Shown: positions 46,379 to 51,281 of the stretch, piece by piece
Layout: every line of letters starts with the position of its first letter
How positions within the stretch are numbered: position 1 is the first letter of the stretch
Assembly (NCBI GenBank): GCA_050084515.1
Contig: CM114271.1
Coordinates: 7,378,001 to 7,442,000, forward strand
Direction: 5' to 3'
DNA: 64,000 nucleotides
Source of the DNA: Blasia pusilla
Taxonomy: Eukaryota
Position numbers and translations under genes: made by a program
The notes under the pieces: model-generated
What the model saw: only the letters and a program-made list of their open reading frames with translations
Told to the model about the DNA's origin: nothing
Databases searched by the model: none

Positions 46379-46505
46379 TCTCTCTCTCTCTCTCTCTCTC
46401 TCTCTCTCTCTCTCTCTCTCTCTCTCTCTCTCTCTCTCTCTCTCTCTCTCTCTCTCTCTCTCTCTCTCTCTCTCTCTCTCTCTCTCTCTCTCTCTCTCTC
46501 TCTCT
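46379..46505. repeat. (CT)n microsatellite, 5' flank of LINE-A
   Basis: Perfect run of about 127 bp. Confidence 0.99.
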
Positions 46506-49500
46506 GGCCTGGTTGGGTTTAAACCCCAAAACTACAAGTCTCGACGACATGTTCTAAAGCAGTGCTCCTGGGTAGCTTATAATGAGTGAACTGCGTGCAA
46601 GCATTATAGCAATACTCTCTTTCGAGTTGCCCATTGCTGTAGTTGGAACCTGTAGTGAGCTTGCAATGTCGTTCCCCTGGTTGGTAGGTGTGGATTAGTG
46701 TGTCATGTAATCCATATGACTTGTGGCAGTTGTGCCACAAGTAAGGTGTCTAGTGGACTTAGTTGGAGAAATGGAGACCTCTCCTTCTTTTGAAGTTGGA
46801 TTCACGGGCCCTCCTCGCAACTTAATGCAGGCTGTTCACCTTGGCGGTAGTGATGATCTCTGGGGGGTAACAAGCGAGCTCTCTTTGGGCACCCCTGCTG
46901 CTTGGAGGCAGCCCCCTCCGACAAATAGGACAGCGAGTCCTGTCTGGACCCTCGGTGGGAGCTTAAACATTCTCCCGGATCCTAAATCAGTTGTTTGCCA
47001 AACCTCTACATATAATCAGCGGCCTTGAGCCCAATATATCTCAGTCCTCCCAAGCTTGTGAGGAGTATCAGTTCACCTATAAAAGGCGCATACCAAAGCC
47101 CACCATCCCCAAGCTGGGTGGGGAATACCGGCATGTTTATGTGAGACGCTCAAAGGCCCCCGGAGTTCGGACCTGGGCAGCGAGTTCAATCTGGTCTCTG
47201 AGGAGGAGACCACGGTTCCACATGATCATTTTCGTGTCGTCCCACAATAGACTTTGTCTCATTTAAGATCATGTCGTGACTTTGGGCTTTGAATTCTGGC
47301 TATTGGTGGGGTTACTCGGATGATGAACGGCAATCAATGTATCTTCAAGGCGTCTATCAAGGGCAGAGGAGGCCAATACCGGCTTGCCACAAAAACCAGG
47401 TGTCTCAAGATCGAGACGTGCCTACAAGCGGAGGGCTATGGTAGTCGAGGGTGGTTCTAGCTTGAAGGAAAGGCCCATCTCCACAAAACCGTTGGTGATC
47501 TACACACCTAATATCTTTAGTGTTCTCCAAGGGACCAGCGATGAAGAGCCTGCACATGAAGAGGTTCCATGTCGCAGCGACCACACCGACGCCAAAAGTG
47601 TGCCCGCCGATCCCCAACCCACTTAGTGACAGTCTCCGTTTGGGTACTGGAACTACGTGGACTCGACCCATGCAATGAAGCGGTTGGAGGTTGCTGAAGT
47701 TTTGCTGAAAAATCAAATACATATATGCGGGGGTCAGGAAACTTGGGAAATCAAGTTAATGGAGATACCCCATGTACCACACTATGCATGGTTTGGAAAG
47801 ATGTACAGCACCCAAGCGGACAACAATAGAGGTATGAAGGGTGTCGGGTTCTTCATCAGAGACTTCATGGTGGAAAGGTGTGAGATCATCAACATAGGGC
47901 TTGAGTATGAACACAGCATATGGGTCAAAGTCCGAGCTGAGTGCAACTCGCGGGATATGTATACCGGGTGTATTTACATGCCTACAAACAGTGAATCTGC
48001 TCCTCTGATAGAGGCAGCGTTTGATAGTGTGAAAACTGATTGCCTTGGGTTCCAGACAAAGGGGAACATAGTCTTGCTGGGAGACTTCAACAACTGGGTA
48101 GGGCAAGGCACTGATCCCCAAGCGGAGATCGGGATGTTTGGAGATGTGAGAGTGAATGGCAATGGCACACGGCTGATCACGATGTTGAGGGAACTTCAAC
48201 CGATGGCACTTAATGATAGGCATAAGGTGGGATCCCCGGCTTGGACTAGGGTCAACTTCAAGGAGAATGAGAGCTCCATTGTGGACTACATAGTTGTGGA
48301 TGAGGAACTCTACACACGCAGTGGGAAGATCACAGTGGATGCGACAGGCATTGGAAGATCAGATCATTCATTGGTCTGGATAGAGTTGCAGCAAAGGCTA
48401 AAATGCTCGACCAAACCAGTGAAGAGGGTGATCAAGAAATGGAGGATAGAGGGCTTCCAAGATGAGGGCAACAAGAAGGTGTACATTGGCAAGCTGGAAG
48501 AAAATCTCTTGGCATTTGACACTTTCATTGAATCTACCGTCAAGACCTTTGGGTTCACAAGAACAAGCTGTGGACATGGTTTGGCATGGTGGGAGCGTGG
48601 AGTAGACAGATGCCGCCAAGATTCTTTGTCGGCAGAAATTGATAATATCGGCAGAGCCGTCAAATGGTGGTCCTTGGAACTCAAGGCAACCATTGCCAAA
48701 CGAAGGGAAGCGTATGTCACAAGTGCCAAAGCCAGGACGATGCATCCTTGTGGGCGAGTATGTGGCCCTACGCAAGAAACCCGTCTTTCGTGCGCATGCA
48801 CAAGAAGAAAATGAACCAAGCCACATATTCATCCATCAATGAGAATTTCATTGAGAATTAGAAAAAGTTCTGGATGGAAGTGCAGAAATTGAACAAGGCC
48901 AGGGGACAAAACAGCGTAAAGGCCTTGAAGAGAAAAGACGGTGGAATGGTGACCATAGCTAAACAGATCCGACATGTGTTGGAAGGCCATTACAAGGAGT
49001 TAGGGAAGCCCGCTTTCGGACATCCCTTGAAGAGCGTAACCGAGAGGGTGGTGGAGGATTTTGTTAAGATACAACGGAGAAGGCGGATGATGAGGTTGAG
49101 CTAGGCAACCCATATAATGATTGGTTCTCCCTGGCTGAGGTGGGAGCAGCGATCAAAGAACTTGTGAACCACAAAGCGGGCGGTGGTGATGAGCTTGTGA
49201 ATGAGTGTTGAAGTATGGCGATCTTTGCTATGGCTCGTTCTCTAGTGAGTCTCTTCAACCTGGTCTCAAGGGCGAAGTCATCCCACAAAGATGGCGGATG
49301 GGAGTCATCGTGAACCTCTTCAAGAAGGGTGAGCGAGAAGACCCTGAAACTACTGGGTATTACATTGTTGAGTGTAGTCGGGGACGCTCCTCTGCCGTAT
49401 ACTCAACAATAGGATCTCTATGTACTGGAGGAGAATTCTGTCATCAAGGAAGGCCAGGCTAGCTTCCGGCAAGCCGAGGATCGTGGACCACATCTTCACC

Positions 49501-51281
49501 TTCAGTCAGATCATCCAGGGTAGGAAAAAGAGGGAAACCCACCTATTGCTTCTTCTTGGACCTCAAGAAGGCATACGACACTTGTATGGCGTGGCGGGCT
49601 TTCTTATAGCCTTTGTGGGAAGGCGGGGTTGAGAGGGAAAATGTGGAGGGTGGTGGAGAAGATGTACCAAAACACAAGGAGTAGAGTTCGGTGAATGGCC
49701 AAAAGATTGGGACATTCGACATCAAGCAAGGAATGGCTCAAGGATGCCCGCTCTCCCCACCCTCTTCAACATTTTCGTGAATTCTCTATTGGAAGAAATG
49801 GAGGATAGTGGACTAGGCATACGGGTGGGCAACAACTCTATTGTTGCCCTCATGTTTCTTGATGACTTTGGTGGCCTCGAGGAAACAGGAGAGAAACTCC
49901 AAGAGATGATCTCCCGACCAAAATCTGGTGTGACATGTGGGGCATGGAGGCAAATGTCTTGAAGTGCGGTGTGATGATTTTCAATGGCAAGGAGGAGGAC
50001 CAAGACCAACAAAGTGGTACTGGGGTGACCAAGAGATCCCCGTGTGGCTACCTACACCTATCTGGGCATAGAATTCTCGGAAGATTGCATGTGGGATGCA
50101 CACATCAAGAAGACTAATGAGAAAGGCCACAAGAAGGTGAACGGTGCATCAGATTCCTACAAATGCCGGGACATCACATCGAAGTAAAGCGCTATGTCAT
50201 TTTTGCATACCATTAAGCCCCTTTGCTGGAATACGGGGCAGCAATGTGGGACGCCAACACTAAACAAAGGGATAGGCTTGAAGTATCGGTTGAAGGCGTT
50301 TGGGGTATCTTGTCAACTTCATCACGAACAGCCCGCGTTGGTGTGAGATCAGAACTAGGTGTGGAACCCTTGGAGGATAGACGTGACATCGCCAAGTTGA
50401 AATGGCGGAGGCAGCTGGAGACAATGGACTCCCATCGCTATCCTAAAGAGGTGATGGGGAAAACCTGGACCCAAAGAAGACCCGTAAAACAGGCCAAATC
50501 TTGGACGAAAAAGGTTCAAGAGATTGTGCAAGCATCCAAGCTCCCAGCAAGGCCTGAATTGTGGGAGCAAGATAAGAAAGCATTCGTGGATACCATAACC
50601 AAAGCAGTGGGCAAACGCTCACAGCAGAATAGCATGGAGGAAGCCATAAAGATGTCTTACCTCTCTCTTTTGACGGTATATCCCGAGAGGGCAGAACTGA
50701 AGAACTATTTGCGGGGAACCCCTTGCTTGGGAACGCGGCTCAAGTTCAAGTTCAGGACGGGGGCAATCCCCTTGAACCATAAGAAAAGTAGGATGGGAAC
50801 ACAACTAAACTCTTGCGCCTTGTGTGACGATGGGGACGAAACCTCTAGTCGTGACTTGGTCTCTGCGCAAAATTCACAACACACAGAGCAAGAGCATATG
50901 CTGATATTGCTAAGCTGGTAGCACGAGGATTGTTCAACACATTCAGTAGCCTTGATTCATTGCCCAAAGCTGCTGCACTCGTAAGTAATGTCTATTGGGG
51001 ATCCCAATCAGGTAAAGTAGATTGTCTGGTGAAGAGTTCCTTGGTTGACACTTGGAAGCTCCGTACAAACACGTTGTTTGGTCAGCATTCACACTATATG
51101 AGAGTGTCTCCCTCCTCTCATATGGTACCTTCTTCACTTGCTTCTCTCTCTACATCCATCCCAGTCTCAAGCACCGTCCAACCAGGGCGCGGGGTCTATG
51201 GTCGCAAGCCTACGACAAGCACTACTTAATAAGTACAGTCTCTCTCTCTCTCTCTCTCTCTCTCTCTCTCTCTCTCTCTCT
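46506..51281 (+). mobile_element. LINE-A: near full-length RTE/RTEX-like non-LTR retrotransposon (APE-RT-Cys motif) with (TC)n tail
   Basis: APE: GGQETW, LLGDFN, IVDYIVV, SDHSLVW. RT: IVNLFKKG, FLDLKKAYD, LPTLFNIFVN, FLDD, YLGIEF, LEYGAAMW. C-terminus FRTG...CALC. The ORF ends at 51229, followed by TAAGTACAG(TC)n at 51230-51281. Many short frameshifts. Confidence 0.93.

Follow-up and report, generated by a model that had tools for sequence, protein, structure and literature searches.

The long interspersed nuclear elements (LINEs) of plants are usually treated as poly(A)-tailed L1 elements together with a few RTE elements, inserting almost anywhere in the genome. In animals, a number of LINEs that encode an apurinic/apyrimidinic endonuclease (APE) have been described as targeting microsatellites, including Waldo, Mino, Kibi (TC), Koshi (TTC), Dong, and crocodilian Tx1 families (Grandi & An 2013, PMC3812793; Kojima 2015, PMC4494074). 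The Kibi elements of teleosts (KibiDr1/2, KibiFr1, and KibiTn1), which belong to the Tx1 clade, are reported to be (TC)n-specific (PMC3812793; PMC4494074), and the preliminary description of the DNA studied here had correctly named them as such. Tx1 is described as an animal group in the account of Kojima, where the working rule for targeting asks that more than 20% of flanks carry the same repeat (Kojima 2015, PMC4494074). Here we describe a LINE family found in a 64,000-nucleotide (nt) stretch of Blasia pusilla DNA (GenBank assembly GCA_050084515.1, contig CM114271.1, positions 7,378,001 to 7,442,000 of the forward strand), which is referred to below as the window and to which all coordinates belong. 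The near full-length copy in this window, copy A, resembles Kibi in that it is an APE-type LINE located inside (TC)n, with the repeat on both sides, and in that it appears to belong to the L1/Tx1 group. It differs from Kibi in its plant host and in displaying a preference for (TC)n rather than a rule, and the two are compared by their descriptions.

Copy A is 4733 nt long (46506-51238, plus strand) and lies exactly between two perfect TC tracts, based on a blastn self-map and Tandem Repeats Finder (TRF). The earlier claim of a near full-length copy with (CT)n directly on both sides is therefore borne out, with (TC)63.5 upstream and (TC)21.5 downstream. The features of this copy are as follows.

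46379-46505, plus strand: perfect (TC)63.5 that adjoins copy A on its 5' side and may be what remains of the target microsatellite (TRF, 100% matches).
46506-51238, plus strand: copy A, a dead, near full-length LINE of 4733 nt (blastn self-map, tblastn, read depth).
46506-46518, plus strand: 13 extra nt at the 5' end of copy A, without a counterpart in the mini-element described below (comparison of 5' termini).
47630-48814, plus strand: APE endonuclease and linker, the longest frame, 394 codons (Pfam Exo_endo_phos, 8.4e-6).
49074-50300, plus strand: reverse transcriptase (RT) region with frameshifts and stops (tblastn with RVT_1-bearing relatives).
50814-50870, plus strand: remnant of a C-terminal Cys-His motif (CX2C..H..C), from the translation of copy A.
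51172-51238, plus strand: 3' module of 67 nt, a recurrent 5'-truncation point that ends in the family signature and a small terminal hairpin (blastn, reads).
51239-51281, plus strand: perfect (TC)21.5, the tail of copy A (TRF).

The identification of this element as a LINE, proposed in the preliminary description, is supported by the Pfam match of the APE domain and by the RT and C-terminal domain found with tblastn. Full-length relatives cover 47468-51091 of copy A, spanning the endonuclease, RT, and C-terminal domain, and they align by tblastn in at least six frame-shifted pieces. Because these pieces lie in different frames, copy A is a near full-length yet dead LINE. The APE frame is in frame with 47327-47626 across one stop codon, as determined by frame arithmetic, and it has 602 relatives at E ≤ 0.001. 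The CX2C..H..C motif is found in 25 of the 31 long relatives of copy A, and its His is restored at 50863 by the majority consensus of the reads. Pfam searches with the broken RT pieces and with the 5' kilobase of copy A returned no match. The N-terminal domain of the relatives is not detectable upstream of 47468 in copy A; consequently, open reading frame (ORF) 1 is not claimed for this copy. Within the 13 extra 5' nt there is a 9-mer that reads as the reverse complement of 51181-51189, a part of the 3' module; it could represent a tiny 5' inversion or a chance match (~4% by a rough count).

In agreement with the preliminary description, the 3' end of the family is fixed, 5' truncation varies between copies, and the (TC)n tail is of variable length. 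The 19-nt 3' signature CACTACTTAATRAGTACAG has six matches in the window when up to 3 mismatches are allowed, located at 164, 329, 4078, and 51695 on the minus strand and at 51220 and 51304 on the plus strand. The expectation from shuffles is 0.02 matches, and none of 100 shuffles reaches six. A seventh, partial signature is present at the window edge (1-20), and scans of metagenome contigs and genome contigs for the signature gave 0 matches. Tails of (TC)n are found on seven copies and range from 2 to 78 TC units. The signature had also been said to abut TC/GA repeats wherever its flank is visible. Its recurrence is confirmed by the six matches, but the abutment has two exceptions: the tail at 4078-4100 is only TCTC followed by TTTT, and at 1-20 the window edge cuts off the tail side, leaving in view sequence other than TC. 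The 67-nt module is the start point of the unit at 329-395, and many read joints and loose ends fall at 51165-51172. The pairs of the terminal hairpin are retained in 4-5 of 5 copies, with one compensatory pair among 15.

The other copies of the family in the window, with their associated tracts, are as follows.

5-395, minus strand: head-to-tail array of three 3' ends, 5-153, 164-318, and 329-395 (TRF period 164, 2.4 copies, 92% matches).
396-410, minus strand: piece matching nt 14-31 of the copy A 5' end (local alignment score 11, a value that 0.0004 of random 55-mers attain).
411-468, minus strand: (TC)29, which is (GA)29 on the plus strand, directly 5' of the mini-element (TRF).
4078-4100, minus strand: 3'-end copy of 23 nt with the tail TCTC+TTTT at a non-TC site in unique DNA, with a possible imperfect target-site duplication (TSD) of 5-8 nt that has an AGTCC core.
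18299-18319, plus strand: (TC)10.5 at the 5' junction of an internal fragment, overlapping the element's own CTCTTC (microhomology, compared with copy A at 49762).
18316-18958, plus strand: internal fragment, truncated at both its 5' and 3' ends, element nt 3257-3910, 83% identical (blastn, tblastn).
51282-51336, plus strand: stack behind the copy A tail, consisting of an 11-nt signature piece and CTCT, then a 26-nt 3'-end fragment and (TC)7.
51539-51694, minus strand: (TC)78 tail, which is (GA)78 on the plus strand, of a 38-nt copy (TRF, 100% matches).
51695-51732, minus strand: the last 38 nt of the family, 95% identical to copy A (blastn), with a 5' side that adjoins another LINE.

The units of the array are 91-94% identical to copy A by blastn, and (TC)5 is found after each of 164-318 and 329-395. 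The 26-nt 3'-end fragment, at 51297-51322, matches the consensus at 22 of 25 nt. The fragment at 18316-18958 corresponds to the second fragment that had been reported to begin at a (CT)n run, and its position at (TC)10.5 confirms that report. The stretch 329-410 on the minus strand forms a mini-element of ~85 nt, in which about 15-18 nt of the family 5' terminus are fused to the last 67 nt. This mini-element may be an abundant non-autonomous derivative of the family, since a strong pile-up of read 5' ends is observed at 51165-51172.

The association of TC tracts with the 5' side of the family copies is strong, although it is not exclusive. Six of the eight family 5' junctions in the window lie no more than 22 nt downstream of a sense-strand (TC)≥5 run, a situation that applies to 0.23% of strand-specific positions in the background (binomial 5e-15). 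When only tracts of at least 10 units are considered, three of five independent junctions qualify (3e-8). Set against the 20% flank rule, the repeat is present at 6/8 junctions, or at 3/5 with long tracts, in one window only. A long (TC)n tract precedes both of the independent family 5' termini, that of copy A and that of the mini-element. Three of the six TC-linked junctions (5-153, 164-318, and the 26-nt piece) come after the short tail of another copy. For the three long tracts (63.5, 29, and 10.5 units), a similarity comparison found no family 3' end upstream, indicating that these tracts are not simply the tails of recognizable older copies. Among the TC/GA tracts of at least 10 units in the window, five of eight touch a family copy (405 of 580 bases), and three do not. 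The family-free tracts are located at 16662-16714, 34379-34473, and 57932-57966. The first of these is preceded by a 5-bp hairpin (CCTAC...GTAGG) that resembles the hairpin preceding the family tail, and this tract may itself be a tail, from a different LINE family.

Reads of the same species have also been used to probe the family, by mapping public runs on 46490-51255 at a likeness of at least 85%. In a whole-genome shotgun (WGS) run, X18, 10,763 of 12.4 million reads match the family. The summed WGS depth rises from ~60 in the first bin to ~250 mid-element and ~810 at the 3' end, a gradient produced by 5' truncation among the many copies of a LINE. The reads are mostly 90-95% like copy A, and at many places nearly all of them differ from it, which marks this copy as old. 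Among the joints listed, 10 run backward out of the tail (51244-51255) into 51069-51172, often across a handful of filler bases; 3'-end stacks inside tails are therefore frequent in the genome. Four of these 10 joints are also present in 1-2 DNA reads while the rest occur only in one RNA run, and there are 234 further joints. Furthermore, one contig joins (TC)n+GG to position 50971, revealing a 5'-truncated copy behind a TC run, and the loose ends before 51170 have a TC-rich consensus (agreement 0.48). The RNA run X21 contains family reads on both strands with a strong 3' bias; we take these RNA reads as read-through and not as proof of activity.

Comparable arrangements are observed in distant LINEs from metagenomes. 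Among 39 metagenome loci, several single-ORF LINEs of ~3.7-3.9 kilobases (kb) carry (TG)n or (TGTA)n directly at the 5' end, and their tails consist of other repeats, (ACAGG)n or (ACAAGT)n. Two of them have TSDs, 8 nt long in L011 and 7 nt long in L003, and (GT)n is present on both sides of L005. Five of the loci (L003, L011, L013, L023, and L027) come from one metagenome assembly, and L023 has a 33-G run at its 5' junction. Together with L005, these loci look like a eukaryotic group of LINEs that targets the edges of microsatellites. The (TG)n-flanked LINEs have no Cys-His motif, so they do not belong to the same clade as copy A. As an analogy only, they show that an APE LINE is able to home in on a dinucleotide-repeat edge, with the long tract staying on the 5' side.

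On balance it is probable, although not strongly so, that the family is a stringent-type LINE that integrates preferentially at (TC)n tracts, its own older tails included. The preference is not considered absolute because some copies are found at ordinary sites. In the proposed mechanism, the transcript would end in the conserved module of ~67 nt, the signature, and a (UC)n tail. The endonuclease would nick the purine strand, (GA)n, within a (GA)n/(TC)n tract or at its edge, and the freed (GA)n 3' end would pair with the (UC)n tail of the RNA to prime reverse transcription. Slippage of the register during this step would result in tails of variable length, while 5' truncation and microhomology joining would generate the 5' junctions. 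Native (TC)n microsatellites and the tails left by earlier copies would be the favored landing sites of new insertions, a bias that would explain both the (TC)n found on the two sides of copies and the head-to-tail stacks. Finally, the tails would seed TC microsatellites that later grow, and stay pure, by replication slippage. The pairing step, the preferred landing in tracts and older tails, and the feedback through which the tails regenerate the target are parts of this mechanism that we infer.

Several observations weigh against such a preference. The junction statistics are drawn from one 64-kb window, in which two of the eight copies (51695-51732 and 4078-4100) have ordinary 5' flanks. 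The array units 5-153 and 164-318 share their start position, and a tandem duplication fits this arrangement better than two insertions. The long tracts are 100% pure, yet most reads are only 90-95% like copy A; the present tract lengths consequently say little about the state at the time of insertion and are partly the product of later slippage. The loose ends behind 51243-51246 are heterogeneous (agreement 0.36-0.53), indicating that many genomic copies have only 2-4 TC units followed by unique DNA, and the joints that go back from the tail come mostly from one RNA run. Neither an empty site nor paralogous flanks were seen within the window. In addition, the predicted fold of the 3' RNA is no better than that of shuffles (z -1.4). 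The (TC)n-targeting put forward in the preliminary description is accordingly retained as a preference, based on 6/8 junctions versus the 0.23% background, but not as a strict specificity, in view of the two ordinary flanks and the many short-tailed genomic copies.

The alternative that survives best involves no target preference. Template jumping by LINE RTs is established for R2, and the RT of this family could jump onto the (UC)n tail of a second family RNA within one integration event, so that, on reaching the 5' end or on stalling, it copies the tail alone or the tail plus part of the 3' end, and only afterwards would the cDNA be ligated into the chromosome. Stacks of 3' ends with short tails and a few filler bases are what such jumps are expected to leave, many copies have ordinary 3' flanks after very short tails, and the fusion of the 38-nt piece with the mid-RT of a different LINE family resembles a template switch. 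However, the three long 5' tracts have no 3' end upstream, so each jump would have to stop inside the tail, and the process would need tails of 63 units or a later expansion. The 5' microsatellites of the distant relatives from the metagenomes differ from the tails of those elements, which is impossible by jumping, although these relatives belong to a different clade. Targeting alone, by comparison, covers both the free tracts and the stacks, and template jumping is regarded as a rather unlikely, if serious, explanation of the junctions.

It is improbable that the association with TC is entirely secondary, the copies having entered ordinary TC-rich sites, the tracts having grown in place from short seeds (the tails, TC-rich TSDs, or the element's own CTCTTC), and the arrays having arisen by later tandem duplications. 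This explanation accommodates the perfectly pure long tracts beside a diverged element, the single start and the period of 164 shared by units 5-153 and 164-318, and the overlap of the junction at 18319 with the internal CTCTTC; moreover, 3/8 long TC tracts are free of family copies, so such tracts grow in this genome in any case. It gives no reason, however, for the presence of tracts at differently truncated copies as well as at two full 5' termini, and it leaves the many different tail-to-3'-end joints in the reads unexplained. Secondary tract growth and duplication surely contribute to what is seen, yet they do not explain the junction statistics. A strict, Kibi-like (TC)n specificity, with the exceptions attributed to rearranged or misread copies, would fit the flanking of copy A and of the mini-element by (TC)n at either end, the 6/8 TC-associated junctions, and the TC-rich consensus of the loose ends before 51170, but it has little to recommend it given the 23-nt copy at a non-TC site with a possible TSD (4078-4100), the 38-nt copy without 5' TC, and the heterogeneous unique sequence after 2-4 TC units in many reads.

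The kind of LINE to which copy A belongs has been assessed through protein comparisons. The closest protein relatives of copy A are at most 43-47% identical, over fragments, and the full-length ones are 25-31% identical. Word-based protein searches with the copy A endonuclease frame, covering longer proteins and proteins of similar length, returned no relative at E ≤ 0.001, and the Protein Atlas matches were to generic APE/RT clusters only. A metagenome contig, L001, serves as the nearest intact proxy; its open frame of 982 codons includes the APE, the RT, and the Cys-His motif (CX2C..H..C). This proxy is 34% identical to the copy A endonuclease and 29% identical to its C-terminal part. Its full-length relatives (1280-1400 amino acids) possess an N-terminal extension of ~170 amino acids, the APE, the RT, and a C-terminal CX2C..H..C motif.

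While a PDB search with the copy A APE alone gave no match at E ≤ 1, a profile built from copy A and 20 relatives matches human L1 endonuclease structures (2e-14 to 1e-11). The same profile matches no R1Bm-EN or TRAS1-EN chain at E ≤ 1, within a set of comparison structures that is without an RTE type. The top profile match is 2v0r ('LTX'), with 56.4 bits versus 51.8 bits for the wild-type L1 endonuclease (L1-EN), a gap of only 4.6 bits. In LTX, the target-recognition hairpin loop of Tx1L has been grafted onto L1-EN (Repanas et al. 2007, PMC1950540). In the profile alignment, the grafted Tx1L loop aligns with a conserved W-T-R-V-R stretch of the copy A lineage. The LTX match may be taken as a faint hint of Tx1 affinity and not as a placement.

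RTE elements are short (about 3.2-3.9 kb), with one ORF of ~1000 amino acids, and are not known to have a C-terminal Cys-His motif, while the L1/Tx1 group carries such a motif. Copy A, at 4733 nt, has ORF2 homology over ~1200 codons, a Cys-His (CX2C..H..C) remnant, an L1-type APE profile, and a (TC)n tail, and the RTE/RTEX label originally given to it is therefore not supported. The APE, the RT, the C-terminal Cys-His motif, and an endonuclease of the L1 type rather than the R1 type agree with the L1 group; the poly(A) 3' end of plant L1 elements is not found, as the tails are (TC)n. Because of the size, the Cys-His motif, and the endonuclease profile, the L1/Tx1 group is favored over RTE, and the build, as judged from these features, points to an L1/Tx1-like element.

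The plant L1-clade LINEs are similar to this family in host kingdom, in the combination of APE, RT, and a C-terminal zinc-binding motif, in weak zf-RVT matches among relatives, and in the L1-type endonuclease profile. In the Repbase 15.08 figures given by Ohshima, (A)n is the terminus of 224 of 233 flowering-plant L1 families, and no family terminates in a different repeat (Ohshima 2012, PMC3472496), whereas in the copy A family a conserved 3' module is followed by (TC)n. With RTE/RTEX elements the family shares stringent 3' ends and tails made of short simple repeats, although the reported RTE tails in flowering plants are (TTG)n or (TTGATG)n (Ohshima 2012, PMC3472496). RTE elements have also been described as seeding microsatellite families in Lepidoptera (PMC2887409). 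In contrast to RTE/RTEX, copy A is 4.7 kb long, has the Cys-His motif, and bears a (TC)n tail. A conserved 3' module followed by a repeat tail is common to this family and to L2/UnaL2, CR1, Waldo, Mino, Koshi, and Dong, and in UnaL2 and CR1 the tail pairs with the nicked target. Several of these elements are reported to target the matching microsatellite (PMC3812793). All of these differ from the copy A family in that they belong to other clades, use other repeats, and occur in animals. Searches of the literature turned up no land-plant LINE described as having a (TC)n tail or target; Repbase and Dfam, which lay outside these searches, may catalogue the family.

The window as a whole is transposon-packed plant DNA. 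The following features were identified around the family copies.

14164-14532, plus strand: Helitron remnant (PIF1 helicase/Helitron_like_N group).
21177-21590: ABC-transporter exon.
30065-32191, minus strand: Helitron helicase (PIF1) pieces.
39852-41300: copia integrase.
43403-43822, minus strand: CACTA Transposase_21 (1.5e-33).
44261-44923, minus strand: Transpos_assoc domain (1.3e-6).
51733-53670, minus strand: LINE 'B', of a distantly related family, with the APE and the N-terminal half of the RT (tblastn, tblastx).
62220-62657, minus strand: gypsy RNase H.

A CACTA transposon at 42568-46220 on the minus strand is located directly to the left of the (TC)63.5 tract. LINE B shares ~40% amino acid identity with copy A in short pieces and is cut off where the 38-nt piece begins, and its continuation was not found in the neighboring DNA. 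The junction between LINE B and the 38-nt piece could have arisen as a chimera through template switching, or through an insertion accompanied by a deletion at the target. A pair of direct repeats of ~800 nt, at 4784-5598 and 62655-63471, shares 88-93% identity across a distance of 57.9 kb; the pair may represent either two copies or the long terminal repeats of one retrotransposon family that spans a nest. Tandem and dispersed short repeats based on AGTCAT/ATGACT, with periods of 22, 144, and 217 nt, are present at 15524-15647 and 37330-38085 and look like the subterminal arrays of a DNA transposon.

If the preference for (TC)n is correct, this family would provide a plant case of a LINE that combines a microsatellite tail with a preference for the same microsatellite, a combination so far described in animals. 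Such a family would be a source for part of the abundant GA/TC microsatellites of plants, given that 5/8 long tracts touch a copy here, and it would explain TC-microsatellite markers that are multi-locus or null. It would also make an endonuclease with a simple repeat target available for study. The link to Tx1, if true, would bear on the age of target specificity in the L1/Tx1 group. It is tentatively suggested, as a possibility short of a probable one, that the family is a plant Tx1-like LINE that homes to (TC)n, regenerates its target through its tails, and has spawned a non-autonomous mini-element of ~85 nt that stacks there. Should this be the case, it would be the first target-preferring LINE of its group in plants and a measurable source of TC microsatellites.

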